A stretch of 64,000 bases of DNA from a bacterium (GCA_963675295.2 CAXXKJ010000002.1:1536001-1600000), one strand, 5' to 3'; shown: positions 43,107 through 64,000, counted from the stretch's first letter. The notes: generated from the letters alone by a model not told the origin. Made by a program: numbers and translations.

Positions 43107-44408
43107 TCACACCCCAAACATCATCCGTTCCGGGTTCTCGATGCAGTCCATGATGCGTTTCAGGAATGTCACTGACTCGCGGCCGTCGATGACACGGTGG
43201 TCGTACGACATCGCGAGGTACATCATCTGTTTAACGACGATCTCGCCGGTTTCTTCGTCCACCATCGGGCGTTTCTTGATCCCGTGCATGCCGAGGATCG
43301 CGCTCTGCGGCGGGTTGAGGATCGGTGTCGAAAGCAGCGAGCCGAACACGCCACCGTTAGTGATGGTGAAGGTGCCGCCCTGCAGGTCGTCGAGTCCGAT
43401 CTTGCCTTCACGCGCGCGTTTCGCGTAGTCGGCGATCGCCAGCTCGACCTCGGCGAAGGACAATTTGTCGGCGTCACGGATGACCGGGACCATCAGCCCA
43501 CGGTCGGTGCTGACGGCGATGCCGATGTCGTAGTAGTGGTTTTCGACGAAGTCGTCACCGTCGATGAAACGGTTGACTTCGGGGAAGCGCTGTAAGGCAT
43601 CGACCACAGCCTTGACGAAGAAGCTCATCACGCCGAGCTTGATGCCATATTCCTTCTCGAAGCTGTCCTTGTACTGGCCACGCATCGCCATCAGCTTGCC
43701 CATGTCCACTTCGTTGAAGGTGGTGAGCATCGCGGTGGCGTTCTTCGCCTCGAGCAGACGCTGGGCGATCCGTTTGCGGATCTGCGTCATCGGCACACGG
43801 GTCTGGCGTTCCGAGGGATCACGCTTCGGCTGTTCTTTCGGCTTCGGCGCGGGCTTGGCGTCGGACTTGGCCGGGGCGTCTTTCTTCGGTTCCGGCTTGG
43901 CTTCGGCGGCGGGCTTGCTGTCCGTGCTGTTGAGGAAGTTCTGCACGTCCTCTTTCAGCACACGTCCGCCCTTTCCGGTGCCTTCGATCTTCGACGGATC
44001 GAGCTTATGCTGCTGCACCATGCGGCGCGCGGCGGGCATCAGACGGTCATCGTCCGGAGCGGATTCGGGTTCTTCTTTGGCGGCAGGTTCGGATTCCGGT
44101 TCGGCTTCTTCAGCGCCGGTATCTGCCTCGTCCTCGGCGGGGGCTTCGTCCTTGGATGGCGCAGATCCCGCGCCGTCGGGGTCGATGGTACCGACAACCT
44201 GGCCGATCTGCACGGTCTCGTCCTCGCCGACCTGAATCTTGACCAAACCGCCGGTTTCCGCCTGGACGGTCATCGTGATCTTGTCGGTCTCGAGTTCGAA
44301 CAGGGCGGCTTCCGCTTCGACGGTGTCGCCGTCCGCAACGTGCCATTCGACGATCACGCCTTCGGTGATCGATTCGCCGACTTCCGGAACCTTGATATCG
44401 ATTGCCAT
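43107..44408 (-). CDS. sucB: 2-oxoglutarate dehydrogenase E2 (dihydrolipoamide succinyltransferase)
   Basis: 'VPEVGESITEG', ETDK lipoyl site, 'AMLTTFNEVDM', 'SYDHRVIDG'. Confidence 0.95.
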   Translation of the reverse strand: MAIDIKVPEVGESITEGVIVEWHVADGDTVEAEAALFELETDKITMTVQAETGGLVKIQVGEDETVQIGQVVGTIDPDGAGSAPSKDEAPAEDEADTGAEEAEPESEPAAKEEPESAPDDDRLMPAARRMVQQHKLDPSKIEGTGKGGRVLKEDVQNFLNSTDSKPAAEAKPEPKKDAPAKSDAKPAPKPKEQPKRDPSERQTRVPMTQIRKRIAQRLLEAKNATAMLTTFNEVDMGKLMAMRGQYKDSFEKEYGIKLGVMSFFVKAVVDALQRFPEVNRFIDGDDFVENHYYDIGIAVSTDRGLMVPVIRDADKLSFAEVELAIADYAKRAREGKIGLDDLQGGTFTITNGGVFGSLLSTPILNPPQSAILGMHGIKKRPMVDEETGEIVVKQMMYLAMSYDHRVIDGRESVTFLKRIMDCIENPERMMFGV

Positions 44409-44429
44409 GACTTCGCTCTCTCTGAAATC

Positions 44430-44511
44430 GCAACGGATGCAAAAGACGCAACAGATGCAACTGACGAAACAAGTAACGTTTGATGATCCCGACCAGCAAG
44501 CTGGTCGGGGC
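44430..44511. repeat. Nonamer tract (GCAACAGAT-like x5) plus REP-like hairpin
   Basis: gcaacggat gcaaaagac gcaacagat gcaactgac gaaacaagt; ATCCCGACCAGCAAGCTGGTCGGGGC at 44486-44511. Confidence 0.75.
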
Positions 44512-44581
44512 AAACTTCAGACTTCGACCGCTGACCGGAGAACGGTCAATGAGAATCGCCCAGCGGAACTGGGCGGTAAAG

Positions 44582-47545: not shown

Positions 47546-47772
47546 GGGAGCCCCCTGAGCGTGTGTTCGCTGCGTGCGTGACAAGTTGTATCCTGCTCAC
47601 GCAGAACTTGCAAGATAGATTCCTGCGATGCTGTGCGATTGCGGAGCACAGATCGCCCGCGGAGGTGGATCTCCTTCGCGGGCGTAAAAATTAGGAATCA
47701 CTAAGATAAGGTGCGGAGCTCAGGAAAGAGAACTCCTCAACGCGAACGGGGAGAACCCGAGCGCACCATGTC

Positions 47773-48612
47773 TCAGGTCGAGATCAGCGGACGGTAGAGG
47801 TCGACCCGGCGATCGTTGAGACGATGATTGTGCGGCGTGATCATCTTCTCATCGGCGAGGTTCAGGTCGATGGTCGCCAGTCCGACATGGTCCTGATCTT
47901 CCGGTGCGGACACGAGAATGTCGCCGCGCGGGCTCATCACCTGGCTCGCGCCGGTGAAGGTCAGGCTGCGGCCGACACGATCTTCACGTCCGATCCGGTT
48001 CGAGGTGATGGTGAAGACACCGTTCTCCACGCTGCGCGAATACATCGCCTTCTGGCAGTAGCGGAGGACGAGGTTCGACGGATGCGCGACGACTTCCGCA
48101 CCGGACAGCGCCAGCAGGCGGGTCGTTTCCGGGAACAGCCAGTCGAAGCAGATCATCAGGCCGATGCGTCCGGCTGGAGTCACGATCACCGGCGGCTGAT
48201 TGTGGGCCTTGTCGAACAGTTCCTTCTCACGGTCGAACAGGTGGATCTTACGGTAGGCATGCGCCATGCCGTCCGGGGTGATCAGGACGGCGGTGTTGAA
48301 AATGCGGTTGTGACGGGTATCTTTTTCCGGGAAACCGATCACGAGGGTGGTTTTCAGTTCACGCGCGAGGCCGGCCATTTTCTTGGCGGTGGGGCCGCTG
48401 TTGAACGGCTCAGCGTATTTTTCGACTTCATCCCGGTCCATGAACTCATAGCCGGTGGTTGCCAATTCGGGGAGCACGAGCAAGTCGGCGTCGGGCGCAG
48501 TGCGGATAAGTTCTTCCGCCATGTCAAGATTCTTCTTGACCTCACCGAATTCCGGTTTAAACTGCACATACCCAACTGTTTTCTCGCGTCTTTCCTTGGC
48601 AGGCTTGTTCAT
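47773..48612 (-). CDS. Carbon-nitrogen hydrolase (nitrilase superfamily)
   Basis: E-K-C triad: 'VLPEL', 'YRKIHL', 'ICFDWLFPE'. Confidence 0.92.
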   Translation of the reverse strand: MNKPAKERREKTVGYVQFKPEFGEVKKNLDMAEELIRTAPDADLLVLPELATTGYEFMDRDEVEKYAEPFNSGPTAKKMAGLARELKTTLVIGFPEKDTRHNRIFNTAVLITPDGMAHAYRKIHLFDREKELFDKAHNQPPVIVTPAGRIGLMICFDWLFPETTRLLALSGAEVVAHPSNLVLRYCQKAMYSRSVENGVFTITSNRIGREDRVGRSLTFTGASQVMSPRGDILVSAPEDQDHVGLATIDLNLADEKMITPHNHRLNDRRVDLYRPLIST

Positions 48613-48965
48613 GGCTACTCCGTCTATCCTGAAAAATAATCTTGAAGTTACGAATCCCGAACTTTTTCCCGGAACGAATCCCACGGTGCGTAAACCACAC
48701 CAGATCGCTTAGAATGCGATAAGAATCACAAGGTGGGTAACCGCCTGGACCCATCGGGGTATGTGAACTGCGTGTCAGCAGAAAGCCTCGGAGTACACGT
48801 ACGTCAAACAGATACTCCCGTGTGTTTGGTCAGTTCCAGCCGGGGCTCCTGATCACGAATCCGGGAGGATACGACAAACCCGCACCATTTCGCAAGTTTC
48901 GGGCATCGCGTTAGAAACTCGTTCACGCTTAACGCGGGAAATCGTACCGAGATCCGCGCCTCCAC

Positions 48966-50522
48966 TCAGTTTTCGTCCATCAGGCGCTTCGAGCCAGCCA
49001 GTTTGCGGATTTGGCTAACATCCTGAACCGATTCAAGGCAGCCGAGGTAGGTTCCGTCCTCGTCGCGCACCGCATCGTAGCGGATAAATATGAACTTCCC
49101 GCCGAAGTCATCCATCCAGAATTGAGCTGTTTCCCGGGTTCCTGCTTTCATTTCGCTGAGGATGCGGTTAACCATGTTGAGACTTTTGGGCGGGTGGCAG
49201 TTCTGCACCTTGCGTCCGATCACGGCGGGTGTGCGCGGGAAGATTTTGTCCGTGACGCCGGTAAAATAGCAGACCTCGTCGTTCTCATCCACGAAAGACA
49301 GCTCCACCGGAAGCGCGAGCAGGATGCGGTCGAGCTGCTTCCCAGTGAGATGGCCGTGGGTGATGACCACAGAATCAGCATTCGCCGCTGCGTTTTTGCG
49401 GTAGGCCGGTTCGTTGTCGGCATCCGTCTCCTCGGCAAACAACGGGTGATGCTGCTTGAAGTGGTCGGACGCGGTTTGCTGCACAGGTCCTGGCATCTTG
49501 ATTCGTGGCGACCACTCATCACCACGTTCGACCAGCGTGAAGCCGAGTTCTTCTTCCTGCTTGTAAATGTCGGCCCAGTGCTCGTGCTGCAACATCTCGA
49601 TGGAGGTGGGCAGCAGGATGGTCTCCTCCTTGGTCACCATGTCGTCGATTTTGGTCAACAGCGGCGGCAGTTGCGATGCAAGAGCGGCGGTATCCGTGTC
49701 TTCCAGCGCCTGGCCGGCGGCTTTCAATCCGGCGCGGATCTCATCATGGATCGCCCACATCACTTTGCTCGGACCTTCAAAGCCTTCGCGTTCCAGCTTC
49801 GGGAAGAGCAGGTTTTCCTTGCGCAGGTAGTGGCGTTCGACTTGCTGCAGGAGGGGGAGCTGGTCGTTCAGGGCGGCAACCAGCTTGTCCGGGTCGCCGG
49901 AGTGAGATTCGACAGCTTGCCGGATCGACTGCGTAATCTCCTTCAGAGCGAGATTTTCCGCGACGAACGTATAGACCGGATGGCCGGGAGTTTGTTCGGC
50001 AACCTGGGTTCCGGCTGCTCCTTCGCCCATGATGCTGACGTGCACATCGCACAGCTCCTGGATCATTTCAACGGGCAGTCCCTCGCTGATCAACTGCTGT
50101 TCCATCAGCGCGATGTCTTTCGCCGGGACAGACCCGAATTGATGCTGGAATCTCTCCTTCGCCGATTCCATCGTTTCGTTGCCGGCATGGAGAGAGAGGA
50201 TTAAAGCCTTGAGGTCGTCCAGCTGCTGCTGATCGTCGGCGACAGGCTTGCCAGGATCGACCTGAACCTCAACCTGCTCGTGTTCACGGATCGCCCCGGC
50301 GACGACGGCAAGCAGATCCTCCAGCTTGAGGCTGCCCATCGCGGCGGCACGGCGGAGAGTTGCGACACGGCCGATGGTGTTGCGCATCAGTGGATTCTTC
50401 AGCGCCTTGAAGTTGCTGGACAGCTCAATCAGCCGGTCCGCGAGCCACGGGTAGTCGCGGAGCAGATCGTGGATTCGTGTATCGGCTGAAATCGTTACGG
50501 GCGTGCGGTTATCGTTACTCAT
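48966..50522 (-). CDS. DUF1858/DUF438 protein with hemerythrin-like and PAS domains
   Basis: 'LCDVH', 'GHPV..F..EN', 'HYLRKENLLFP', 'VMWAIHDEIR', PAS 'VIGRKVQNCHPPKS'. Confidence 0.85.
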   Translation of the reverse strand: MSNDNRTPVTISADTRIHDLLRDYPWLADRLIELSSNFKALKNPLMRNTIGRVATLRRAAAMGSLKLEDLLAVVAGAIREHEQVEVQVDPGKPVADDQQQLDDLKALILSLHAGNETMESAKERFQHQFGSVPAKDIALMEQQLISEGLPVEMIQELCDVHVSIMGEGAAGTQVAEQTPGHPVYTFVAENLALKEITQSIRQAVESHSGDPDKLVAALNDQLPLLQQVERHYLRKENLLFPKLEREGFEGPSKVMWAIHDEIRAGLKAAGQALEDTDTAALASQLPPLLTKIDDMVTKEETILLPTSIEMLQHEHWADIYKQEEELGFTLVERGDEWSPRIKMPGPVQQTASDHFKQHHPLFAEETDADNEPAYRKNAAANADSVVITHGHLTGKQLDRILLALPVELSFVDENDEVCYFTGVTDKIFPRTPAVIGRKVQNCHPPKSLNMVNRILSEMKAGTRETAQFWMDDFGGKFIFIRYDAVRDEDGTYLGCLESVQDVSQIRKLAGSKRLMDEN

Positions 50523-50610
50523 GAATCGCTGTTCCTTAGCTACGGGTTGTGTTGCTGGTAGAAGGATACAGCGAATCGGTCCGAACGGAATTGACGAATG
50601 CAAAAACGGC

Positions 50611-50663
50611 AAACTCCACCCGGAGTCAGGACAAATGGCGATTCGTGACTCAGGGTGGAGTTT
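50611..50663. other. Long inverted repeat (hairpin) between the PAS and DUF438 genes
   Basis: AAACTCCACCC(G)GAGTCA ... TGACTC(A)GGGTGGAGTTT. Confidence 0.6.
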
Positions 50664-50687
50664 CAGTAACGATGGGATGTAAGCGGA

Positions 50688-51086
50688 CTATTCGAGCGTA
50701 CGTTTCTCGCCGGTGAGCGGCTGGAGTTTGGTGATGTCCTCAACGTATTCGAGGCAGCCAAGGTACTGGTTGCCGAGCGCGCGGACGGCGTAATAGCGGG
50801 TGAGGATCATACGGTCCTGCGAATCCTTGTGCCAGAATTCGGCGACATCACGCTTGCCGGATTTCAGTTCCTCGAGCAGTTGATTGACGAGGTCAATGCT
50901 GCTTTCTGAATGGCATTGTCGCACGTCGGTTCCGATGATGGACAAGTCGCGTTCGAAAATGAGATTCGGCCGGTCGGTGAACCAGGTGACGATGTCATTT
51001 TCATCAATGAACGTGATTTCGCCCGGCAGGGCGGACAGGATGGCTTCGATCTGTTCGGGAGACAGTTCCCCCGTATTGAACATCAT
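50688..51086 (-). CDS. Stand-alone PAS domain protein, paralogous to the C-terminus of the adjacent DUF438 protein
   Basis: 'LPGEITFIDEND', 'IIGTDVRQCH', 'YLGCLE'; GAGGAGG RBS. Confidence 0.85.
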   Translation of the reverse strand: MMFNTGELSPEQIEAILSALPGEITFIDENDIVTWFTDRPNLIFERDLSIIGTDVRQCHSESSIDLVNQLLEELKSGKRDVAEFWHKDSQDRMILTRYYAVRALGNQYLGCLEYVEDITKLQPLTGEKRTLE

Positions 51087-51127
51087 CTGCAGTGTCCTCC
51101 TCAGTGATCTATGATGAAGTCGGGGGG

Positions 51128-52336
51128 TCAGGCGTTGTTGAGACGCCGCGCCGCTTCCGCGATGACGTCTGGCGGTTCCGCGGTGTAGCAGAAACGCGCC
51201 CATCCGTCATACGCCACACCGAACGGACCGCCTGGGCTGACGACCACGCCGGCATTCAACATGCGGTCGAGTCGCTGGGCATCGTTGAGGCCGTCCCAGG
51301 TGTCGCGCATGTCGACGAAAAGATAAAACGAACCGTCCGCTGCCATGTACGGTCGTCTCACATTTTCCATCGCCGCTGAGCGGCACTCGAGATACGCCGC
51401 GCGCAGACGCTCGGTGATCGTGAAGTGATGGGCAAGCGCGCGAATTCCCTGCACTTGCGATGGCCGGTTGGGCTCGTACCCGACACCGACATGGGCGGGA
51501 TGCATTGCCGCGAGAGGCCCCGGCGCGGCAGTGATCCAGCCGAGGCGGAGGCCGGCGGCGGCGTACGATTTGGATGCGCTGAACACCGAGACCGTGCGCT
51601 CATGCATCTCGGGCAGCGATCCGATGCTGACGTACGGTTGCTGCGCCCAGACGTAATCCTCGTACGCTTCGTCACTCAGGATCCAGAGGTCATGCTTCCG
51701 TGCAAACGCGGCGATCTGTTCGAGAATCGGCTGCGGCAGGAACACGCCGGACGGGTTGTTCGGGTTGTTGAAGTAGATCGCGCGGGTGTTTTCGGTCAGG
51801 AACGGGGTGAGGATCTGCTCAACGTCGGCACCAGCTGAAGGCGTTGGATGATCATCAATCTGGATGTCTTCCGCGTTCGGGGCGAAATGGTGGAAGAACG
51901 GCACCTCGACGGCGCAGACTTTCGCCGTGGATGCAACCACCTTGAAGATCGTCCAGTGCGGCGACAGGGTGAGGACTTCGTCGCCCGGTTCCAGCAGCCG
52001 TGCCATCGCGAGGAACAGGCCGCCGGTCGCGCCGAAGGTGATCTGGATGTCGCGTTCGGAGTTCAGCGGCAGCTTGTTGACCGTGGTCAGCTTGTTGAAC
52101 AGACGGCGGCGCAGCTCAGGTTCACCCTGCGTTTCGCCGTACCGGCTCATGCGATCATTCCACGGTTCGGCGTCCAACGGTTGGTTCAGCTCAGGCGGCA
52201 GGTCAGAGTAGGTGTCGCCGACATGCAGCGCGATCGGCGCTTCGCCGGAACCGGAACGAGCATCGATTTCTTCGCGGATACGGTTGAAGATGGTGGCCTT
52301 GAAGCCATGATCACGAAGGTCTGCGGGGCGGGGCAT
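51128..52336 (-). CDS. PLP-dependent aminotransferase, class I/II
   Basis: 'NNPNNPSG', 'SDEAY', 'SASKSY...GLRLG', 'ARFCY'. Confidence 0.9.
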   Translation of the reverse strand: MPRPADLRDHGFKATIFNRIREEIDARSGSGEAPIALHVGDTYSDLPPELNQPLDAEPWNDRMSRYGETQGEPELRRRLFNKLTTVNKLPLNSERDIQITFGATGGLFLAMARLLEPGDEVLTLSPHWTIFKVVASTAKVCAVEVPFFHHFAPNAEDIQIDDHPTPSAGADVEQILTPFLTENTRAIYFNNPNNPSGVFLPQPILEQIAAFARKHDLWILSDEAYEDYVWAQQPYVSIGSLPEMHERTVSVFSASKSYAAAGLRLGWITAAPGPLAAMHPAHVGVGYEPNRPSQVQGIRALAHHFTITERLRAAYLECRSAAMENVRRPYMAADGSFYLFVDMRDTWDGLNDAQRLDRMLNAGVVVSPGGPFGVAYDGWARFCYTAEPPDVIAEAARRLNNA

Positions 52337-52339
52337 GGG

Positions 52340-53926
52340 TCACTCCTGCGCGTCGCGTTGATTGTCGTCGTGGGGGATCTGCACGGTCGCCGAATACGGG
52401 CCGGGATTGAGCTGATCCGGGGTCAGGTCGAGTGGGAAGCGCAGGATCAGGGTCGTGCCTTCACCACGCTGGCTGTGGATCTCGATCTCTCCCTGATGCT
52501 GTTCCATCACGTTGTGCGCGATCGCCAGACCCAACCCCATGCCGACACCGGGGCCCTTGGTGGTGAAGCCGGGGTCGTAGATGAGGGCGAGGTGTTCCTC
52601 GGCGATGCCGGAGCCGTTGTCACTGAAACGGATCACGGCGTGGCTGTCTACCGTACTCGTTTCGATCCGGATGAAGCCGTCTCCCTTGATCGATTCGATA
52701 GCGTTGGTCAGCGTGTTAAAGAAGACCTGGTTCACCAGCACCGGGAAGCCGAGCACGGGCGGCAAGTCGCCAAATTGTTTCTCGATGGTGATGCGGTCTT
52801 CCCAGCCCGGCGACAGCATGGCGATGGAATCTTCGAGGCCCTGGTGCAGGTCAAAGGTTTGGATCTCGGGTTCGTCCAGCCGTGCGAACGACTTCAACCG
52901 GTTGACCATCGTCGCGATCCGGTCGGAACCCGTCTGCACCACCTTAATCGCGGATTGAATGCTCTTCAGGATTCGCGCGGCTTTCTTGCGGTTCGCTTCG
53001 GAGTCCGGTTGTTCGAGCAGCGTGTCCAGCGAGGCGCTGGCAACCTGAACGGTTTTGGTGCTCGATTTGACAGCGCCCAGCGGGGTGTTGAACTCGTGCG
53101 CGACTCCGGCGACAAGGTGCGCGAGCGAAGCGATCTTTTCGGATTGAACCAACCGTGCCTGGGCGTCCCGGAGGTGACGGGTGCGGTCAGCGACTTTCTG
53201 TTCGAGGCCGAGGTTAAGCGCTTCGATCCGGTCAAACTGATGGTGCACGATGGCGATCAGGAAAAAGATCGCGCCGATTGCCGCACCAACGAAGCTGAGG
53301 AACTGGCCGGTGAAATTGAAATGAACCATCAGCAGCTCGAAAATCGGCTGCGCCAGGATCAGCACCGCGAGGCCGATTGTGTTGAGCGTGAGAAAGTGAC
53401 GGTCCGCTTCCTCGTCCGCTTCCCGAATCGCACGAAACAGCATCGGCCAGACAGTGAACGGCAGCGGGAGCATCGCCACCATCAGCAACCAGCCCAATGG
53501 GCCGTAACTGATGTTTAATCCGGTACTGGTAACCGTGACATTCTCGAACATCTGGTCGGTCAGACTACCGTAGATGATCATTGCCGGGATCGCAATGCCG
53601 AGGTAGATCAAGTTGTATTTTATAGGGATACCGAGGAATTTTTCGCGCAACCGCTTGTCATGTCCCGTCAGGACGATGATGAAATAGATCGTGCCCGCCA
53701 ATGCCAGCAGCGACGTCAGGATCAGCACCGGAATCCACTTGGACGCGTCCGGGTGATCCCAGTTGTTGAGCACGAAAAAGTTGACCAGCGCATCGGTTCC
53801 GAATGCTCCCGCGAACAGGGCGAACGCGACATTCACCCGTTCCTTGGTCCGGAACAGCCAGCCGACCAGCTCAAGAGTGTAGAGCAGAACGGCGGCGATC
53901 AACGCAGGTATGGCGTACGGGTTCAT
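52340..53926 (-). CDS. Sensor histidine kinase with N-terminal 7TM region
   Basis: Seven hydrophobic segments; H-box 'AGVAHEFNTPLG'; N, G1, F and G2 boxes. Confidence 0.92.
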   Translation of the reverse strand: MNPYAIPALIAAVLLYTLELVGWLFRTKERVNVAFALFAGAFGTDALVNFFVLNNWDHPDASKWIPVLILTSLLALAGTIYFIIVLTGHDKRLREKFLGIPIKYNLIYLGIAIPAMIIYGSLTDQMFENVTVTSTGLNISYGPLGWLLMVAMLPLPFTVWPMLFRAIREADEEADRHFLTLNTIGLAVLILAQPIFELLMVHFNFTGQFLSFVGAAIGAIFFLIAIVHHQFDRIEALNLGLEQKVADRTRHLRDAQARLVQSEKIASLAHLVAGVAHEFNTPLGAVKSSTKTVQVASASLDTLLEQPDSEANRKKAARILKSIQSAIKVVQTGSDRIATMVNRLKSFARLDEPEIQTFDLHQGLEDSIAMLSPGWEDRITIEKQFGDLPPVLGFPVLVNQVFFNTLTNAIESIKGDGFIRIETSTVDSHAVIRFSDNGSGIAEEHLALIYDPGFTTKGPGVGMGLGLAIAHNVMEQHQGEIEIHSQRGEGTTLILRFPLDLTPDQLNPGPYSATVQIPHDDNQRDAQE

Positions 53927-53948
53927 GTTCCTCTCAACGGCTTCTCTC

Positions 53949-54322
53949 AACCACGGAATACACGGAACACACGGAAAAAGACTTTTTGAACCGCGAAAGG
54001 CGCGAAAACAGCGAAAAAAACCTGAAGTAATTGGTAACTGCGAAAGAAAAAAAACAAATCTGAATGATTGGAAAAGAAAACAACTTAAAAAATTTAAAAA
54101 TAAAAAGTATGTATCAATACAAAGAATAACAGGTATATCCAGTTACTATGATTATAAATATATAGGTAAATATTGGTAGTTATTGTTTTGCAATTAAAAG
54201 TATTTATTTTTTTTTAACATAAAGTAATTCTTTTATCTTTTCTTTCCTTTTTTCGCGCCTTTCGCGGTTCAATCTGTTGTTATCTTTCCGTTTATTCCGT
54301 TTATTCCGTGTATTCCGTGGTT
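53949..54322. mobile_element. AT-rich insert bracketed by two nested pairs of inverted repeats
   Basis: Outer 9-mer-periodic IRs (53949-53981 / 54283-54322); perfect 23-bp inner IR (53986-54008 / 54250-54272); interior 54061-54240 counted by hand at 33/180 G+C. Confidence 0.7.
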
Positions 54323-55448
54323 ACCTGTCTTTCAGGTATACCGCGCCGGGTTCGATCATCGCGCCACGCGGCTGGTACTCGAGGCAGTGCGCCATCCAGC
54401 CGGTCTGGATCGCGAGGCAGAACGGGATCGGGAACGAGCTCACCGGCAGGCCGATGGGTGCGTACACGAGGCCGGTGATGCTGTCGACGTTGGCGTAGAT
54501 ACCTTTCGGTCCGAGGGCGGATTCCACCTCACCGCGTACCGCTTCGTAGACTTTCCAGCGGCCGGCCATGCCCTTGTCGGCGAGCAGGTTCTTGGCGAAC
54601 GGTTCCAGCACCCGCACGCGTGGGTCCGGGCACTTGTAGATGCGGTGGCCATACCCGGGGAAACGGTACTTGCCGGCGGCTTTCACCTGCGCCCAGGTGC
54701 GCGCGTCTTTCGGTTTGTCAAACTGGGCCAGATCTTCGTACGCGAGCTGGTTCGCGCCACCGTGGCGAACACCGGAGAGCGCGCCCATGCCAGCCAGTAC
54801 CGCCGAGCCGAGATCGGCGCCGGTGCTGATGACGATCAGTGCGGCGAACGCGGCGGCGTGGAGGCCGTGTTCGGCCTGCACGATCAGGCTGACGTCGAAC
54901 GCTTTTTCCTCGTGTTCGTTAACCCGGCGTCCCAGCGCCTGGTAAAGGAAATTCGCGGAGAAGCCGAGATGGTCTTTCGGCGGCAGTGGTTTCTTGCCGT
55001 TCAGGTGTCGAATCGCTCCGGCAGCCAGAGCTGCCGACCAGCTGAGGATCCGGGCCGGACGCCGCCACTGGGCCTGCATGTCGGTGCGGGAGGCCTCCGG
55101 GATATGGCACGCGGCGATGGTCAGCATGGTGCGATACTGCGCCAACGGGTGCGCGTTGGACGGGATATACTTCAGCGCGTCGAACGCTTCCTGCGGCGGA
55201 GTGCGCCACTTTTTCAGCTCTTCGTCCCACATCGCGGCTTCCTGCGGAGTGGGCAGATTGCCGTGCAGGATGAGGTACGCGACCTCCTCGAACGAGCAGC
55301 AATCGGCCAGTTCGTCGAGCGGGTAACCACGGTACATCAGGCGGCTGTTTTTGCCATCAATTTGGCCGACCCGAGTGTCGGTGACGACGAGGTTTTCGAG
55401 CCCGCGGTTGTAGGTTTGAATCTGGTAGCCGGAGGTGTAGGGTCTCAC
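54321..55448 (-). CDS. Citrate-synthase-family protein B (catalytic His/His/Asp present; substrate Arg residues lost)
   Basis: GTG start overlapping the upstream stop (GTGA); 'RHGGAN', 'GYGHRIYK.PDPR', 'ANVD'. Confidence 0.85.
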   Translation of the reverse strand: MRPYTSGYQIQTYNRGLENLVVTDTRVGQIDGKNSRLMYRGYPLDELADCCSFEEVAYLILHGNLPTPQEAAMWDEELKKWRTPPQEAFDALKYIPSNAHPLAQYRTMLTIAACHIPEASRTDMQAQWRRPARILSWSAALAAGAIRHLNGKKPLPPKDHLGFSANFLYQALGRRVNEHEEKAFDVSLIVQAEHGLHAAAFAALIVISTGADLGSAVLAGMGALSGVRHGGANQLAYEDLAQFDKPKDARTWAQVKAAGKYRFPGYGHRIYKCPDPRVRVLEPFAKNLLADKGMAGRWKVYEAVRGEVESALGPKGIYANVDSITGLVYAPIGLPVSSFPIPFCLAIQTGWMAHCLEYQPRGAMIEPGAVYLKDR

Positions 55449-56650
55449 TTTTCCGCCCCCCGGTTGATGCGGCGGATCGGGTGGCCGACATAACGGTCGA
55501 GCGGACGGTACAAGCGCGGGTTCTCCAGTTCTTCGTGCACCCGTGCCATCAGGCCGGCCATGCGTCCCACCATGTACAGGCACGGCAGCATCGGCTTATC
55601 CGCGCCGATCAGGTGAAACAGAAGCGCGGCGTAGAAGTTGATGTTGACGTGCACGCCGCGCGGGGCCAGTTGCCGCAGGGCTTCATCCTCAACGGCGCGA
55701 GCGATGTCAAACAGTTCCGGGGTGCTTTTGCGCCGGGCCTGGGCGGCGACTTCCTTGCGCAGGATGACGACGCGCGGGTCGGGCATGTGGTACAGCCGGT
55801 GACCGAAGCCTCCGATACGTCCGCCGGAGGCGATGGTCGAGGCGACCCACAGCCGCGCTTCTTCCGGATCGTTCAGGGCGAGAATCTGCTCGAGCACTGT
55901 CTCGCCCGCCCCGCCGAGCTTGTCTCCACGCAGGGCGGACAATCCGGCGACGACATTGTAGTACGGATCGGCGAGTGTGCTGGCGACGACCATCGAGGTG
56001 AAGGTGGGCGCATCGAGGCCGTGATCGGCGAAAAGCACCCAGAGCAGGTCGAGCGAATGGACGTCTTCCGAGTCTGGGTCGCGATCCTGCAACACGCGCA
56101 GCATCTCGTGCGCGATGTCGTATTCAGAGTGGAACAGCACTGGCCCGCGTCCCACGCGATGCGCGGCGATTTGCGCGACCAGCGCCGCAACTTGTGCGAT
56201 GATGCGCAGCTCTCGCCAGTGACGGTCGCCGGATAGATCGTCTTCGACAGTCATTTCGTGGCACCCGAGCGCGGACACTCCCGCCCGCAGCATGCGTGTC
56301 GGATGGATACCGGGGTCCATCGAACGGATCAACGCGATGACATTTTCCGGTAGTTCCCGGCTGGCGCGCAGGTTGTCGCGGAAGCTGGTGAACGCGGCTT
56401 CGTCCTCAGCCGGTTCGTTGCCGGTGATCAGCAGGTGAGCGATTTCCTCGTAGCTGTGCATACCGGCCAGCCGTTCGATCGGTACGCCGCGGTATTCGAG
56501 TGTACCGCTGGACGGATCGAGCCAACTGACGCGCGTCGCGGAAGCGATCACGCCGGACAGTCCCGGACCGACCTCGCTGGTGACCGGCCAGTCGAGCTCG
56601 TCCAGCGCCCATGAGTAATTGGAACTGAGGGTGCGGAAGGCTTTCATCAC
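55445..56650 (-). CDS. Citrate-synthase-family protein A (catalytic His and Asp substituted)
   Basis: 'GTLEYRG', 'ADHG', 'GDKLGGAG', 'GFGHRLY..PDPR', 'VNINFY', 'RLYRP'. Confidence 0.85.
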   Translation of the reverse strand: MMKAFRTLSSNYSWALDELDWPVTSEVGPGLSGVIASATRVSWLDPSSGTLEYRGVPIERLAGMHSYEEIAHLLITGNEPAEDEAAFTSFRDNLRASRELPENVIALIRSMDPGIHPTRMLRAGVSALGCHEMTVEDDLSGDRHWRELRIIAQVAALVAQIAAHRVGRGPVLFHSEYDIAHEMLRVLQDRDPDSEDVHSLDLLWVLFADHGLDAPTFTSMVVASTLADPYYNVVAGLSALRGDKLGGAGETVLEQILALNDPEEARLWVASTIASGGRIGGFGHRLYHMPDPRVVILRKEVAAQARRKSTPELFDIARAVEDEALRQLAPRGVHVNINFYAALLFHLIGADKPMLPCLYMVGRMAGLMARVHEELENPRLYRPLDRYVGHPIRRINRGAEK

Positions 56651-56763
56651 GATCCTTGTCAGCTCTTTGGTTGCCGAAAGGTACGGTCAGGGTGCGGGTG
56701 GGACAACGTACGCGGGTGGAAAATCAAGCCGCGTGGCGATCCGGCAGCCTGCTGGTTGATCTC

Positions 56764-57264
56764 TCATTCTTCCCGCAGCAACCGCCGGAACTGAGCGACC
56801 TGGCTGGAATGATAGATCGCATGAAACGCGGCGCCGGTGACCAAGTATTCGAGCTCATCATTTGGAACGGCGGGTTGGATTGTCTTGTCTCGCAGCTCGA
56901 CAAGTGTGTCGAGCAATCTGGTGTATTCCTCACGCAACAGCTTGCGATCCGCTTTCCACTGGGTTTCGGTCGCTTCTGCTGGTTGTTCAAGCCAGTCGCT
57001 GCCTGTACGTGGAAAGCTACCCTGTCCGGTGCCGCTGATCTTGACCCGCACCCGGTAGCACCAGTAGGCGCAATGCAGGCAGATCTGCCAGATAGTCTTG
57101 CTGCGTCCCGGGACGGCACGACGGGCGGTTTCGGCATCCACGCCCTTCAATGCGCTGTTGAGGTTCTTGCCGTGCCACGCGCCGCGCATGTAACTCATTT
57201 CAACACTGGCGATCAAGCTATCCCAACCGGGAGGAGTATCTGAGCGCCGCCAGAACTTAGCCAT
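56764..57264 (-). CDS. DinB/YfiT-family protein
   Basis: 'AWHG', 'TIWQICLHCAYW', 'HAIYHSSQ'. Confidence 0.8.
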   Translation of the reverse strand: MAKFWRRSDTPPGWDSLIASVEMSYMRGAWHGKNLNSALKGVDAETARRAVPGRSKTIWQICLHCAYWCYRVRVKISGTGQGSFPRTGSDWLEQPAEATETQWKADRKLLREEYTRLLDTLVELRDKTIQPAVPNDELEYLVTGAAFHAIYHSSQVAQFRRLLREE

Positions 57265-57464
57265 GGTGAAGTCTCCCACAATCAACTTCTATCCTGTTGT
57301 ATTTATAGATGATTGTAAGAATATGATCGGGGAGCCCACAACAAGAAAGTGTTAGTTAACGATTGAATAAGTACTTAAGCAGTACCATATTGCCCATAGC
57401 GAAACAGAAATAGTTCTACTTGCTTGCGTTACAGTATTGTCAGGAAGAGATGAGGTGCCGTCGT

Positions 57465-59969: not shown

Positions 59970-60368
59970 TCAGGCCTGGACGGCTTTGTAGCCGTAGTAG
60001 ATGACGCTGGCCTCGTTGTCATCGTACAGCTTGCGGAACTCGAAGTTGACCGGCATGCCGATCTTGACGTCGTCGACGTCGAGGTCGGTCAGCTGGCAGG
60101 TGAGCCGGACTCCGTCTTCGGTTTCGACCACGGCGAGTGCGTACGGCGCGAGGTCGGCGTACGGTGTCGGCGCGACACGGATGATGGTGTAGGTCACCAC
60201 CTTGCCGCTGCCGCTGAGCTGCACCTCTTCGAATGTCGCGTCGAGGTTGCCCGGCGCGACGAGACGCGGCGGGAAGTAGATTTTTCCCGTTTCGGTGTCC
60301 TTGTTCGCGATCATGCGGTACCGTTGCGGCTGTTCACGCCACACCCGGCCGGTTAATGTCTGGGCCAT
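59970..60368 (-). CDS. DUF35 (Zn-ribbon/OB-fold) scaffold protein of the thiolase/HMG-CoA synthase complex
   Basis: 'WREQPQRYRM', 'YFPPR', 'GKVVTYTII', 'IGMPV...FRKL...IYYGYK'. Confidence 0.88.
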   Translation of the reverse strand: MAQTLTGRVWREQPQRYRMIANKDTETGKIYFPPRLVAPGNLDATFEEVQLSGSGKVVTYTIIRVAPTPYADLAPYALAVVETEDGVRLTCQLTDLDVDDVKIGMPVNFEFRKLYDDNEASVIYYGYKAVQA

Positions 60369-60402
60369 CGCTTTATCTCCTTACAATTCAATGTCTTCGA
60401 CA

Positions 60403-60474
60403 AGATCCTTCACTTCGTTCAGGATGACACCCTGCTGTCGCATCCTGTGGGACACTTTGTCCTCAAAGTGTCCC
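60403..60474. repeat. Right half of the 31607 element plus a GGGACACTT hairpin
   Basis: AGATCCTTC...TCAGGATGACA (60403-60429); GGGACACTTTG-tcct-CAAAGTGTCCC (60449-60474). Confidence 0.7.
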
Positions 60475-60490
60475 CGATATCGTCCCCGGA

Positions 60491-61648
60491 CTAGACAGCC
60501 TCGAGAATCGAGACGACGCTGGAACCGCCCGAACCGCCCATGTTCTGCGCAAGGGCACGGTTCGCCTTCGCCAACTGGCGGCCGTTCTCGGCGGTGCCTC
60601 GGAGCTGCTTGACCAGCTCCACGATCTGCGCCACGCCGGTCGCGCCGACGGGATGGCCCTTCGACTTCAAGCCGCCGCTCGGGTTCACCGGGAACTTGCC
60701 GTCACGCGCGGTTTCGCCGGCCATTGATGCCGGGCCCGCCTTGCCGGGTTCGTAGACGCCCATCGCTTCGAGCACGGCGATTTCCGCGATCGTGAAGCAG
60801 TCGTGCACTTCGCAGAAGTCGATGTCATTGATGGTGACACCGGCGAGGTCGAGCGCGCGTTTGGTCGCGGTGGCGACAGCGCCGAGGTGCGTGATTTCCT
60901 TGCGGGCGTGCAACGCGAGCGTGTCGGTCGCCATGCCAACGCCGAGGATCTTGATGATCGGCAGGCCCATGCTCTTGGCGAGGTCAACCGGCGCGAGGAT
61001 CGCGGCCGCCGCGCCGTCCGTGACCGGGCTGCAGTCGAGGATGTGCAGCGGGTCGGCGACCATGGTGCTGTTGAGCACGCCGTCCACGGTGATCTTCGCC
61101 GGGAACTGCGCGTTCGGGTTGAGTGAGCCGTTGTCGTGGTTCTTCACCGCGACATGCGCCAACATTTCCGAGGTGGTGCCGTACTTGTCCATGTGCGCGT
61201 GCGCGAGCATCGCGTACAGGCCGGGGAAGGTCGCGCCGTGGAAGCCTTCGTACTCGGCGTCCGCCGCGGTGGCGAGGGCGTAGGTTGCCATGCCGCCGTC
61301 CACGTCCGTCATCTTCTCCACACCGCCCGCGAGCACAATGTCGCTGAGGCCGGAGGCGACTTCGATCCACGCCGACCGGATCGCCGTACCGCCGGAGGCG
61401 CAGGCCGACTCGACGCGTGTCGCCGGGATCGGCGCGACGCCGAGGTAGTCGGCCATCAGGCTGCCGATGTGTTCCTGGCCGACGAACAGGCCGCCGGACA
61501 TGCAGCCGATGTACATGCTGTCGAGGTTGTCGACGCCGGCGTCTTTCATCGCGCCCTTGGCCGCTTCCACGAACAGATCGCGATAGCTGCGTTCCCACAG
61601 TTCGCCAAACTTTGTCATCCCGATGCCGATGACCGCCACATCCCGCAT
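60491..61648 (-). CDS. Archaeal-type acetoacetyl-CoA thiolase
   Basis: '[10 protein letters not shown]', 'VESACASGG', 'EVHDCFT', 'GHPVGATG', 'QNMGGSG'. Confidence 0.92.
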
Positions 61649-61787
61649 CGTCATTCCCCTTCGTTTCTGTTCTGCTGTATCTGAAGTTTTTCGTTTCGAA
61701 TCAGATAGATTCAGTCCTCAGTCAACGGGTCCGCGTCCGCAAGCGAACACGGGCACATTGTTTTCCGCCGACAGCAGCCCCGCAGCC

Positions 61788-62102
61788 CTAGCCTGTCAGC
61801 CGGTCCTGGATCGTTTTCCCGCCTATGTACACCAGCGGCAGGAACGGCAGCAGGCCGATGATGTCCAGCCGGCCAACGAAGATCCAGATTTCAATGTTCA
61901 CCCACGCGGTAAACGCCAGCCCACCAGCGAAGATGAGGACATTCAGCCACGCATTCCCCAGCGCGCTGCTGCGCCAGATCCAGACTGCCAACGCGAGGAA
62001 CGCGGCCACGTTCAGATAGCGCAGGATCTTGAGCCAGATCGGCATGCCCTGCACCATCGCGAGCACCTGTTCGCGCAGTGCTTCAACGTCGAGACTGTCC
62101 AT
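61788..62102 (-). CDS. Small membrane protein (~3 TM)
   Basis: Hydrophobic 104-aa ORF in a tightly packed co-directional run. Confidence 0.6.
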   Translation of the reverse strand: MDSLDVEALREQVLAMVQGMPIWLKILRYLNVAAFLALAVWIWRSSALGNAWLNVLIFAGGLAFTAWVNIEIWIFVGRLDIIGLLPFLPLVYIGGKTIQDRLTG

Positions 62103-62109
62103 CGGCCGG

Positions 62110-62376
62110 TTATCCCCGCAGTCGTCTCACTTCCGTGTACCAGCCGTTGAGTACAGCGCTTGCCAATCGTTCACAGGGACACTCGCCGTCCCGGATCTCG
62201 ATCTGGTAACTCTCCCGGGCTTCGGTTTCGCTGATCTGGAAGCTCAGGATCTGACGATCACCCTGTTTCATCGTGAGGATGAAGAAGCGTTCGTCGCGTC
62301 CGTCCCATCGTTTCACGATCTCCGTGCAACAGGTGATGATCGGAGGAGTTTGGTCCGTTGGACTCACCATACGCAT
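62110..62376 (-). CDS. Small soluble hypothetical protein (CC and CPC motifs)
   Basis: 88-aa ORF in the same run. Confidence 0.5.
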   Translation of the reverse strand: MRMVSPTDQTPPIITCCTEIVKRWDGRDERFFILTMKQGDRQILSFQISETEARESYQIEIRDGECPCERLASAVLNGWYTEVRRLRG

Positions 62377-62394
62377 ACACCTGAGTTCATCGAA

Positions 62395-62544
62395 TCAGAT
62401 TTCGTCCCGGTTCCGCCGGAAAAAGATGAACGGCAGGAACAGGAACAGGCCAAATCCCCCACGTGGCCCAAGCCACAACCACAGGATGGCGTTGATGATG
62501 ACCATGGAAAGAATGGCAATCAACCACCAGCGTTTGCGACTCAT
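62395..62544 (-). CDS. 49-aa membrane microprotein MSRKRWWLIAILSMVIINAILWLWLGPRGGFGLFLFLPFIFFRRNRDEI
   Basis: Translated by hand (below the ORF-track cutoff); hydrophobic hairpin with basic ends. Confidence 0.55.
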   Translation of the reverse strand: MSRKRWWLIAILSMVIINAILWLWLGPRGGFGLFLFLPFIFFRRNRDEI

Positions 62545-62561
62545 GACCGGCTACTCGTTGT

Positions 62562-62660
62562 TCACGACTTGCTGCACGTTATCGGGCAGTATTTTCCACA
62601 CACCTTCGCCAGCAGTGCAAGGACAACCGCCACGATGGCGAAAATGATCAGTTTCTTCAT
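62562..62660 (-). CDS. 32-aa microprotein MKKLIIFAIVAVVLALLAKVCGKYCPITCSKS
   Basis: Translated by hand; GGAG RBS 6 nt upstream; signal/TM segment plus a three-Cys tail. Confidence 0.55.
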   Translation of the reverse strand: MKKLIIFAIVAVVLALLAKVCGKYCPITCSKS

Positions 62661-62695
62661 CTGTATCTCCATTCAGGGGTGCTCAGCGGCATCCC

Positions 62696-62989
62696 TTACT
62701 CACCCCAAATCTGCTTATGCAGCCACTTCAGTGCCGTCGGGATGATGAGCGTCAACACGGCGGCGATGGTGAACAGCCAGATCATGCTCACCGGCCGCCA
62801 GCCGAATCGCTCAAGAACCTGGTAGTTGACGAAGGTGATGATCGCAAAGGTGGTCCAATAGGTCCACGGCTGCGCGCGTTCAATCTTGTGCTCGATCACC
62901 GTCAGCCACCAGAACCCGGCAAGCACGCCGATCAAGGCGACAATTCCGCCAATGCCGATCAGCCATTCGCCGGGCGTCAACGGCGTCAC
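62696..62989 (-). CDS. Small membrane protein (~3 TM), coupled to the HMG-CoA synthase gene
   Basis: GTG start overlaps the upstream TGA (GTGA); hydrophobic. Confidence 0.6.
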   Translation of the reverse strand: MTPLTPGEWLIGIGGIVALIGVLAGFWWLTVIEHKIERAQPWTYWTTFAIITFVNYQVLERFGWRPVSMIWLFTIAAVLTLIIPTALKWLHKQIWGE

Positions 62990-64000
62990 GAGTTCCGCAG
63001 AATCTTGTGGCGGAACTTGGCGTACTGGCCGTAGCTGAGGTAGCGCTTGTCCTCATCCAGCTGCGGACGTGTATGCGGCGCCTTGTCCTGCAGCGCGGTG
63101 ATTTCGTCGGTGACGGTGAAGATGAAGCCGTCCGAACCTGCGCCGGAGCCGTAGCTGACCATAAAGATCTTGTCGCCCGGCTTGGCGATGTCGAGCACCG
63201 CGCTCAGCCCGATCGGGCTCGCGCCGGAATAGGTGTTGCCGAGCCACGGGGTCAGCCAGCCGGTCTTGAACCCGTCACCCTTGACGTCGAAGCCGAGCAT
63301 TTTCGCCGCACGTTGCGGGAACTTGCCGTTCGGCTGGTGGAAGACACAGTAGTCGAAGTCTTCGGGCTTCATGCCGGACTTTTCGAGCAACGCGTTCGCG
63401 CAACCCATCGTGGTGCGGAAGAACGCTGGCTCACCGGTGAAACGTCCGGCGTGTTGCGGGTAGTGTTCGTACTCACGGCGCCAGAAGTCCGGCGTGTCGC
63501 TCATCCACGAGTGGGTGTAATCGATCGTCGCGACGACTTTGTCCTTGCCCATGATGAATGCTGCCGCGCCGGCGGACGCCGAATACTCAAGCGCGTCACC
63601 CGGGGCGCCTTGCGAGGTGTCCGCACCGATGCCGACGGCGTAGTCCATCTCACCGGCCTTGACCAGCGAATGGGCGACGTACATCGCCTGCGATCCAGCC
63701 TTGCATGCAAATTCGAAGTCGGCACAGTGGGTATCGTGTCCCGCGCCGATGGCTTCGGCGACGGTGGTCCCGGATGGTTTCACGGCGTACGGGTGGGATT
63801 CCGACCCGATGTAAAGCGCGCCGATTTTGAGCGGGTCGATGCCGGCACGCATCAGGGCGCGACGCGCGGCGGTGACAGAGAGGGTGATCACGTCTTCGTC
63901 CGGACCCGGAACGGACTTTTCATACAACAGCAGGCCCTTCTTGTAACTGGGAGCGTCCGCCCCCCAGACTTCAGCAATGGTCTCCAGCTTGATTCGGTTC
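62986..64000 (-). CDS. Archaeal-type hydroxymethylglutaryl-CoA synthase (5' end outside the window)
   Basis: 'RIKLETIAEVWG', 'EKSVP..DED', 'GSESHPYAVKP', catalytic 'EFACKAG', 'HQPNGKFP', 'GNTYSG', 'SYGSGAGSD'. Confidence 0.93.
   Translation of the reverse strand, partial: NRIKLETIAEVWGADAPSYKKGLLLYEKSVPGPDEDVITLSVTAARRALMRAGIDPLKIGALYIGSESHPYAVKPSGTTVAEAIGAGHDTHCADFEFACKAGSQAMYVAHSLVKAGEMDYAVGIGADTSQGAPGDALEYSASAGAAAFIMGKDKVVATIDYTHSWMSDTPDFWRREYEHYPQHAGRFTGEPAFFRTTMGCANALLEKSGMKPEDFDYCVFHQPNGKFPQRAAKMLGFDVKGDGFKTGWLTPWLGNTYSGASPIGLSAVLDIAKPGDKIFMVSYGSGAGSDGFIFTVTDEITALQDKAPHTRPQLDEDKRYLSYGQYAKFRHKILRNS

Follow-up and report, generated by a model that had tools for sequence, protein, structure and literature searches.

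The DNA examined in this study was a stretch of 64,000 nucleotides (nt) from a bacterial genome (GCA_963675295.2, CAXXKJ010000002.1:1536001-1600000), which is called the window throughout; all coordinates are counted from its first letter. The subject is a pair of adjacent genes, A and B, that encode paralogs of the citrate synthase fold with complementary losses at the active site, and that are proposed to supply the two subunits of a single enzyme. The features of the pair and of its surroundings are collected in Table 1.

Both genes were read as open reading frames (ORFs) on the minus strand, and no frameshifts or stops were encountered in either. For gene A, the ATG at 56645-56647, the next codon after the GTG listed in the table, is the likelier start and would give a protein of 400 residues. 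The two proteins are only 29% identical to one another. Each matches Pfam PF00285 (Citrate_synt) end to end: residues 30-383 of A align to profile positions 1-356 of 357 (293.6 bits), and residues 16-366 of B to positions 1-355 of 357 (297.9 bits). The gathering score of this profile is 27 bits, and both proteins belong to the superfamily by that measure. The stop codon of A and the start codon of B share a GTGA, which has the appearance of a translational-coupling junction. A G-rich, Shine-Dalgarno-like run stands just upstream of the start of B, and GGAGG- or GGGAGG-like runs occupy the equivalent place in many of the related loci whose junctions were listed. The ORFs, the Pfam alignments and the sequence itself thus bear out the preliminary description of this DNA, which had reported two full-length genes of the citrate synthase fold overlapping by GTGA. 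A scan of 53900-57400 returned no promoter-like site and one terminator-like site on the wrong strand, and neither outcome beat shuffled sequences. No RNA data set was listed as containing this DNA; the four sequencing runs that do contain it come from a single study.

Table 1. Features of the A/B gene pair and of neighboring DNA in the window. Residue numbers in parentheses are those of pig citrate synthase.
Feature	Position	Strand	Remarks
Gene A, citrate-synthase-fold subunit	55445-56650	minus	ORF and translation, 401 aa from GTG at 56648-56650
Gene B, citrate-synthase-fold subunit	54321-55448	minus	ORF and translation, 375 aa from GTG
GTGA overlap	55445-55448	minus	start GTG of B (55446-55448) on stop TGA of A (55445-55447)
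Shine-Dalgarno-like run, GGGGGCGGA	55452-55460	minus	G-rich; within 3' end of A, 3-11 nt upstream of the B start; presumed function
A Asp213 codon (at Asn242)	56012-56014	minus	Asp in 121/121 homologs, 59/59 loci; new to A pocket
A Leu245 codon (at catalytic His274)	55916-55918	minus	never His in 121 homologs or 59 loci
A Asn338 codon (at catalytic base Asp375)	55637-55639	minus	Asn in 121/121 homologs, 58/59 loci
A Arg363 codon (Arg401)	55562-55564	minus	Arg in 121/121
A Arg382 codon (Arg421)	55505-55507	minus	Arg in 121/121 homologs, 56/57 assessable loci; expected donation into B active site
B His197 codon (at Asn242)	54858-54860	minus	His in 121/121; new to B pocket
B His229 codon (His274)	54762-54764	minus	His in 121/121 homologs, 55/57 loci
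B His268 codon (His320)	54645-54647	minus	His in 121/121
B Asp322 codon (Asp375, catalytic base)	54483-54485	minus	Asp in 121/121 homologs, 53/57 loci; exceptions L050, L051, L052, L054
B Ile347 codon (at substrate-binding Arg401)	54408-54410	minus	Ile in 119/121
B Glu366 codon (at trans-donated Arg421)	54351-54353	minus	Glu 76, Ser 13, Ala 13, Asp 10, Asn 7; Arg not among the five commonest
Spacer between B stop and next gene (histidine kinase)	53949-54322		370 nt
Genes downstream of the pair, histidine kinase to lpd	41106-52336	minus	
DinB_2-superfamily protein	56764-57285	minus	173 aa; 113 nt upstream of gene A
Archaeal-type trio	59970-63927	minus	ca. 3.3 kb upstream of gene A; last gene cut off by the window end

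Division of active-site residues between A and B

Residues were assigned in pig numbering by three routes: HMMER alignments to solved citrate synthases, alignment to the canonical citrate synthase of the same genome (the motifs of which agree with pig numbering), and codon-by-codon reading. The roles of these residues in citrate synthase are in part general knowledge. Conservation within each family was counted in the query and its 120 best homologs (n = 121; homologs 59-96% identical to A and 65-100% identical to B). Locus-level counts were made in 59 genome loci found through A, 57 of which also have B.

The catalytic triad of citrate synthase, His274/His320/Asp375, reads Leu245/His284/Asn338 in A, the first and last of these lying in the motifs GDKLGGA and NINF. 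In B, the triad is intact as His229/His268/Asp322 (RHGGAN, GHR and NVDS, respectively). The oxaloacetate-binding arginines are distributed in the opposite manner. All three are present in A, as Arg293 (329), Arg363 (401, in GRMAG) and Arg382 (421, in LYRP); B has only Arg277 (329), with Ile347 (AIQTGW) and Glu366 (MIEP) at the other two positions. His210 (238) is also retained in A and His194 in B, and the B motif HGLHAA places His197 at the position of Asn242. Every motif quoted in the preliminary description was found as claimed, as were the losses of the His and Asp from A and of the arginines from B.

At the position of His274, the A family features Thr (65 sequences), Leu (33), Gln (19) or Ser (4). 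The pocket residues of A are as invariant as those of B, and the A pocket is conserved to a greater degree than a pure arginine donor or a mere scaffold would need. Mean column identity, calculated from 30 sequences of each family, was 65% for A and 76% for B, values that indicate strong purifying selection on both. Because the substitutions are fixed across the 121 sequences of each family, the losses are judged not to be decay; their conservation in homologs, a check suggested in the preliminary description, was confirmed in those sequences and in the 59 loci.

The excerpt used of a study on two enzymes of Sulfolobus tokodaii (PMC5021468) gives the substrate-binding set as His, His, His, Arg, Arg and Arg', the last being supplied by the other subunit. 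The same excerpt describes, for dimeric archaeal citrate synthases, a C-terminal loop that crosses to the N-terminal strand of the partner. The two enzymes treated there are among the PDB matches of the pair. In an A/B dimer, the predicted site in B would contain two of the three arginines (no Arg401), and the site in A would also contain two of the three (no Arg421').

Linkage of the pair and its place in the superfamily

Relatives of A were sought with a pattern scan in one genome per species, which gave the 59 loci. The source metagenome-assembled genomes (MAGs) are labelled Acidobacteriota (Thermoanaerobaculia, Holophagae, Sulfomarinibacteraceae), Calditrichaeota, LCP-89, Electryonea and a few others. 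A relative of B follows A directly in 57 of these loci, and in the other two the contig ends within ca. 75 nt of A; adjacency viewed from the A side is accordingly 57/57 where it can be assessed. The A stop and B start overlap by exactly 4 nt (ATGA, GTGA or TTGA) in 53 of the 56 loci evaluated, down to 46% protein identity. Of the exceptions, L035 and L047 are frameshifted and L049 was scored -1; three further loci were not evaluable.

The survey from the B side covered 79 species genomes of the window's own phylum. B was present in 18, comprising 13/16 genomes of family f1 (including that of the window), 3/16 of f2, 2/9 of f3 and 0/38 elsewhere. Nineteen B matches were obtained in the phylum; A lies directly upstream of 18, and the remaining match is at a contig start. 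Wherever an assessment was possible, each gene was accompanied by the other, and the expectation that A and B co-occur in other genomes held in both directions (57/57 via A, 18/18 via B). Two genomes (G010 and G015) have two pairs each.

These counts bear on the explanation that A and B form separate homodimers with unrelated functions, their adjacency reflecting co-regulation only. Citrate synthases are normally homodimers, and the low mutual identity of A and B, together with their placement in clades that are not sisters (see below), would be in keeping with that arrangement. Against it, both the 401 and the 421 positions of a B/B dimer would be without Arg, and an A/A dimer would have neither His274 nor Asp375, losses that are exactly complementary; moreover, neither gene is found alone where this is assessable, and the 4-nt overlap is nearly always kept. 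Separate homodimers are therefore regarded as very improbable.

A quick tree of concatenated A and B sequences (47 loci and the window; midpoint root only) places the window in a clade of 10 rows, which includes MAGs labelled Calditrichaeota, Thermodesulfobacteriota and Pseudomonadota. Its sister is a clade of 27 rows, 23 of them labelled Acidobacteriota, and the two together receive a Shimodaira-Hasegawa-like approximate likelihood ratio test value of 99. The window's phylum also contributes pairs that branch outside both clades. This topology suggests that the A-B operon was transferred between phyla.

Family assignment was examined with NCBIfam, using as the test set for citrate and 2-methylcitrate synthases TIGR01800 (cit_synth_II) and 14 citrate or methylcitrate synthase models. 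The best model was TIGR01800, to which A scored 277.5 and B 286.9 bits, below the cut-off of 421.3; each protein was in fact below the cut-off of all 22 NCBIfam models that it matched. The same was true of the citryl-CoA lyase models (PRK06224), with NF004864 scores of 71.1 (A) and 94 bits (B) vs. a cut-off of 261. The best PDB matches were 8AN1 for A (E = 1e-60) and 1IOM, from Thermus thermophilus, for B (E = 6.3e-75), and each protein is nearer to solved dimeric citrate synthases than to the other.

The family of B constitutes one full-length cluster at 50% identity (542.6 bits); the next full-length representative scored 258.5 bits at 36% identity. When the 135 nearest full-length representatives at that clustering level were inspected, the canonical pattern H-N-H-H-x-R-[DE]-R-R was present in 109 and Arg401 in 129, and the residue pattern of B was found only in its own representative. 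In a FastTree phylogeny of 186 sequences, A and B were each monophyletic (support 1.0; stems of 1.15 and 1.01 changes per site, respectively) and were not sister clades; the deep topology of this tree is weak, and its outgroups were picked by likeness to B. One representative, P0357, was considered as B-like, having Leu and Gln at positions 401 and 421. It was set aside: its Pfam match ends at profile position 274 of 357, and its C-terminus is probably not comparable.

Other architectures were noted among the relatives of the pair. P0393, a protein of 864 residues from a metagenome contig of 10,927 nt, contains two tandem citrate synthase domains in one chain (Pfam 830.7 bits, in two stretches). 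Read by eye, its first half has all of the key residues; in its second half, the Asn242 position is occupied by Ala and the Arg421 position by His. This protein may represent a further instance, here covalently joined, of citrate synthase halves that are unequal, or it may be an assembly artefact in which two genes were run together. In six of the nearest representatives (P0260, P0273, P0367, P0276, P0285 and P0315), citrate synthase domains are fused to other modules, namely PTAC (phosphate propanoyltransferase), AMP-binding adenylation domains with or without a carrier, an N-terminal sigma-70 region 2/4, or a C-terminal response-regulator receiver.

The predicted A/B dimer and its chemistry

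A model of the A/B complex had an ipSAE of 0.93 (runs of 0.92, 0.93 and 0.93) vs. 0.00 for the best control, a result that speaks to the likeness of the complex to citrate synthase homodimers rather than to a preference of A for B over itself. The mark of 0.93 was reached by 116 of 157 solved complexes and by 2 of 215 mismatched pairs. At least 94% of the contacts were common to the runs, and the predicted local distance difference test value of the partner was at least 90. On the A side, the modelled interface comprises residues 378-395, i.e. the arm with Arg382, and an N-terminal extension (14-40) that holds the invariant Trp14, Trp21 and Pro22. On the B side, it comprises 195-199, 218-231 and 269, segments that include His197, His229 and the residue after His268. 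Mirror contacts are made by B 362-375 to A 211-214, 238-245 and 285.

The preliminary description had proposed an obligate A/B heterodimer in which B is catalytic and A donates the trans arginine. Residue conservation, strict adjacency, the retained 4-nt overlap and the dimer model lend indirect support to this proposal. We accordingly favor the reading that A and B constitute an obligate heterodimeric enzyme of the citrate synthase fold, with one catalytic site, that works beside the housekeeping citrate synthase; its probability is put at about 0.62. As to its parts, the A/B heterodimer itself is very likely and the logic of a single site is probable, and the use of an acceptor other than oxaloacetate stands somewhat short of an even chance.

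In the mechanism envisaged, translational coupling on a shared transcript would yield A and B in equal amounts. B would be the catalytic subunit, providing the enolising His, the general-acid His, the Asp base and Arg329. Because B has no Arg at positions 401 and 421, it could not complete a site alone or as B/B. A, with neither His274 nor Asp375, would be unable to catalyse the condensation; its C-terminal arm would carry Arg382 into the B cleft, as Arg421' is carried in ordinary citrate synthase dimers. The catalytic site would thus be composed of the body of B and Arg382 of A; position 401 there is Ile, and position 242 is taken by a His that is new to the pocket. A second, non-catalytic pocket would be formed by the body of A (His210, Asp213, His284, Arg293, Asn338 and Arg363) and Glu366 of B. 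This pocket would most likely bind a ligand as a regulatory site, or would simply lock the heterodimer.

The pair would most likely join a short acyl-CoA to a carbonyl acid in a Claisen-type condensation, or cleave such a product in the reverse direction. Remodelling of the electrophile pocket suggests that the substrate is not oxaloacetate, and a different 2-oxo acid is a plausible acceptor. A bioRxiv preprint assigns Arg329 and Arg401 to the keto side of oxaloacetate, whose carboxyl groups are met by His238, His320 and Arg421*; the same text has oxaloacetate flip by 180 degrees. By that account, the arginine lost from B would belong to the keto/alpha-carboxyl side, which points away from 2-oxo acids. 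If Arg401 does hold that side, as this one preprint and general knowledge of the enzyme would have it, the remodelled site would suit a carbonyl acid with a distal carboxylate only. A 3-oxo acid or a semialdehyde of that kind, such as acetoacetate or malonate semialdehyde, is offered as a guess. The fullest version of the proposal would make the pair a new class, in which a pseudoenzyme A gives a trans arginine to the sole site in B, the A pocket serves an allosteric effector or a second ligand, and acetyl-CoA or another short acyl-CoA is condensed with a carbonyl acid other than oxaloacetate, or the matching hydroxyacyl-CoA is cleaved; it is advanced tentatively.

Dimeric (type II; archaeal, Gram-positive) citrate and 2-methylcitrate synthases (PF00285, TIGR01800; 1IOM, 1VGP and 1VGM from Sulfolobus tokodaii, and 8AN1) share their fold with the pair over its full length. 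B has the same His/His/Asp and Arg329, and in the model the C-terminal arm bearing the last arginine crosses to the partner, as in the excerpted description of the archaeal enzymes. Those enzymes are, however, homo-oligomers in which each chain has all of the residues, whereas each chain of the pair has only a part of them. Further, at most one of the two sites of the pair would be catalytic (with Ile at Arg401 and His at Asn242), its scores are under all curated cut-offs, and the genomes keep a canonical enzyme as well. The citryl-CoA lyase/ATP-citrate lyase module (PRK06224; 6HXP, 6HXJ) is a distant member of the same superfamily that acts in the cleavage direction, and its matches to the pair are weak (NF004864, 71 bits for A and 94 for B, as above; B to 6hxp, 47 bits). 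Citryl-CoA lyase modules are ca. 260-280 residues long and have no N-terminal half, whereas A and B are full length and score far under the cut-offs of those models.

Yeast NAD-isocitrate dehydrogenase (IDH1/IDH2) and trypanosomatid S-adenosylmethionine decarboxylase (AdoMetDC)/prozyme are hetero-oligomers in which a catalytic subunit is joined by a degenerate paralog, the latter completing the active site or regulating it. The pair would work in a similar way, with diverged duplicate subunits, one for catalysis and the other for binding or regulatory residues, and with sites across the interface; the folds and chemistry of these systems are unlike those of the pair. No heteromeric or paired citrate synthase was described in the open-access papers and bioRxiv preprints that were searched, in agreement with the earlier statement that no enzyme with this arrangement was known. 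Gmet_1124/Gmet_1125 of Geobacter metallireducens was considered as a precedent for a heterodimeric 2-methylcitrate synthase and was rejected: an excerpt of PMC2700814 describes Gmet_1125 as a homolog of CoA-transferases, which leaves Gmet_1124 as the one relative of citrate synthase. The fold and the class of chemistry are known; the division of a shared active site between coupled paralogs was described in none of the papers that the searches returned.

Competing explanations, genomic context and implications

Several points weigh against the heterodimeric enzyme. What was observed comprises the residues, their conservation, the linkage, the coupling and the co-existing canonical citrate synthase; the binding of A to B, its stoichiometry, the role of the trans arginine, the activity and the substrate are inferred. 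The pass of the dimer model may stem from likeness to citrate synthase homodimers, which are abundant among solved structures. His197 of B may replace the lost Arg401, which would leave ordinary citrate synthase activity. A search among longer proteins for a fused A-B chain gave two matches, neither belonging to the A family, although this is weak evidence. ORF clustering of the 59 loci and the window revealed no neighbors common across clades, only synteny at the clade level. In the phylogenetic profiles of the window's phylum (the 79 genomes, 18 of which have the pair), sucA occurs in 14/18 pair-bearing genomes and MmgE/PrpD-family genes in 13/18 (0/5 outside family f1); both are common in pair-less genomes, and no dependency is evident for either.

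The remaining points against it come from a small subclade, L050-L054. The catalytic Asp of B is replaced by Tyr or Gly (NVGG, TVYG or NVYG) in L050, L051, L052 and L054, i.e. in 4/57 pairs and 4/5 subclade loci. In L051, B has in addition a Gln at the His274 position, and in the sister locus L053, A has His at the Asn338 position and Tyr at the Arg382 position. Neither subunit has a full triad in the Asp-less lineages, and a non-catalytic role is therefore possible there. The B-type gene is found near 11218-12300 in L050-L052 and at 1612-2694 in L054. The ORFs of L050-L054 stay intact and keep the 4-nt overlap; in the quick A+B tree, the subclade has a long stem (0.69), and its composition is deviant. 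Four of the five loci, L051-L054, share as neighbors a response regulator, a PAS histidine kinase, NrfD and 4Fe-4S proteins; L050 does not have that set. The genome of L051 also carries an intact pair, L058. The losses may reflect relaxed selection in one lineage, or a complex whose role does not need catalysis.

An explanation built on this subclade is that the pair is no longer an enzyme, being instead a ligand-binding or regulatory complex on citrate-synthase scaffolds, a pseudoenzyme pair, or a pair heading to decay. The intact, coupled ORFs of loci with no catalytic Asp, one of them also lacking His274, would be accommodated by it, as would the sensor-kinase, response-regulator, NrfD and 4Fe-4S set adjoining L051-L054 and the high conservation of an A subunit that is catalytically dead throughout. 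CitA of Caulobacter, a homodimer with no paired degenerate partner, is pertinent to subunit A and to the degenerate subclade, as a citrate synthase scaffold with a function outside catalysis. In an excerpt of PMC7083601, a regulatory role independent of enzymatic activity is reported for this protein; its listing there as the Krebs-cycle citrate synthase marks it as catalytically competent. All catalytic residues of B are nevertheless present in 53/57 loci, and its triad is complete in 121/121 homologs, which would be hard to explain without catalysis. The long branch and deviant composition of the subclade also weigh against this explanation, and the genes in the window bear no signs of decay. 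A pair without enzymatic function is hence considered improbable.

The canonical citrate synthase bears on another explanation. The genome of the window has three genes of the citrate synthase fold: the pair, and a 444-residue enzyme with all nine canonical residues. Such an enzyme, encoded apart from the pair and complete at the nine key positions, was present in each of the 16 pair-bearing genomes examined (G000-G015), which settled affirmatively the question of whether a canonical gltA exists elsewhere in the genome; G008 and G009 have short citrate-synthase-like matches besides. The pair is therefore no replacement for citrate synthase. It could still be a heterodimer that acts as an ordinary citrate (or 2-methylcitrate) synthase isoenzyme, in which A is regulatory or structural and the missing Arg401 is offset by His197 or by a flexible pose of oxaloacetate. 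B keeps the whole triad, Arg329 and the acetyl-CoA motifs RHGGAN and GHRxYK, a trans Arg would be available from A, and the His at the Asn242 position is invariant in B. The genomic setting has a flavor of the tricarboxylic acid (TCA) cycle, with sucA lying within ca. 10 kb downstream in 8 of the 13 pair-bearing genomes of the window's family, and the order in the window being aminotransferase, nitrilase-family hydrolase, sucA, sucB and lpd; the pair is also isolated, as many gltA genes are.

The evidence on the other side of the isoenzyme explanation is that the canonical enzyme is already there in 16/16 genomes, that the scores of A and B are far under all citrate and methylcitrate synthase equivalog cut-offs, and that nearly all of the representatives nearest B keep Arg401 and most keep the full canonical pattern. 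The association with sucA disappears outside the one family, in which it may be due to descent. For the methylcitrate version, PrpB (TIGR02317) scored over its cut-off in 0/5 pair-bearing genomes, and the sole MmgE/PrpD-family protein of the window genome scored 93, 87.8 and 67.3 bits vs. PrpD cut-offs of 950, 575 and 458. PrpD and PrpB do not, then, co-occur with the pair as they would in a methylcitrate cycle. On balance, an ordinary isoenzyme is considered unlikely, and the heterodimer with a remodelled site in B is retained as the preferred reading.

The single MmgE/PrpD-family gene of the window genome (G000:C2:1282000-1299000, L115) is isolated, with three large FG-GAP proteins that have a Por_Secre_tail (a type IX secretion sorting tail) on one side and surE and guaA on the other. 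The commonest neighbor of the pair, in 20 loci, is a convergently oriented gene for a protein of 366 residues that has no Pfam or NCBIfam match. Downstream of the pair in the window are genes for a histidine kinase, a class I/II aminotransferase, a PAS_10 protein, a DUF1858-DUF438-hemerythrin-PAS_10 protein and a nitrilase-family C-N hydrolase, followed by sucA, sucB and lpd, which encode the 2-oxoglutarate dehydrogenase complex; parts of this gene order recur in 5-7 related loci of the window's family.

On the other side of the pair, and on the same strand, the archaeal-type trio consists of a 3-hydroxy-3-methylglutaryl (HMG)-CoA synthase (NF003274, 460 bits vs. a cut-off of 244; its N-terminus is outside the window), a thiolase (NF004720, 529.7 bits) and a DUF35/OB-fold protein. 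It is absent from the neighbor clusters common to at least 4 of the 59 related loci. The possibility that the pair replaces HMG-CoA lyase was considered using NF004283 (PRK05692.1), which we take to be that enzyme; the controls (B. subtilis, Caulobacter, Thermus and Haloferax) matched this model. It was found in 13 of the 79 phylum genomes and in none of the 18 with the pair. The idea was dropped: the split follows family lines and is not independent, and G002, a MAG labelled Holophagae, has the pair along with two copies over the cut-off. Pieces of an NF004283 match are present in G005.

The DinB_2-superfamily gene upstream of gene A is on the same strand as the pair; no DinB-family neighbor cluster was common to at least 4 of the 59 related loci. 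The spacer that follows B is very AT-rich and palindromic. It has 31-nt terminal inverted repeats, 90% complementary and composed of CACGGAA-like units, and an inner 80-nt inverted pair; elsewhere in the genome, its end sequences were found at a dozen or more sites. The spacer has the look of a small dispersed repeat or an insertion resembling a miniature inverted-repeat transposable element.

In the source names of the matches, members of these families carry the label "citrate synthase" or "2-methylcitrate synthase", and the source records of the labelled members are from Acidobacteriota (Thermoanaerobaculia, Holophagae, Sulfomarinibacteraceae), Calditrichota and others. Because of these labels, a step of the TCA or methylcitrate cycle may be miscounted when the metabolism of these uncultured bacteria, which are widespread in sediment and soil, is reconstructed. 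Citrate synthase is the textbook homodimer with active sites shared across its interface. The use of acetoacetate or malonate semialdehyde, if true, would amount to chemistry of the HMG or 3-hydroxyglutarate type on the citrate synthase fold. Likewise, if the proposed arrangement is correct, the pair would be a clean example of homomers evolving into obligate heteromers with a pseudoenzyme partner, and would represent a new activity or a new regulatory mode for a fold of central metabolism.

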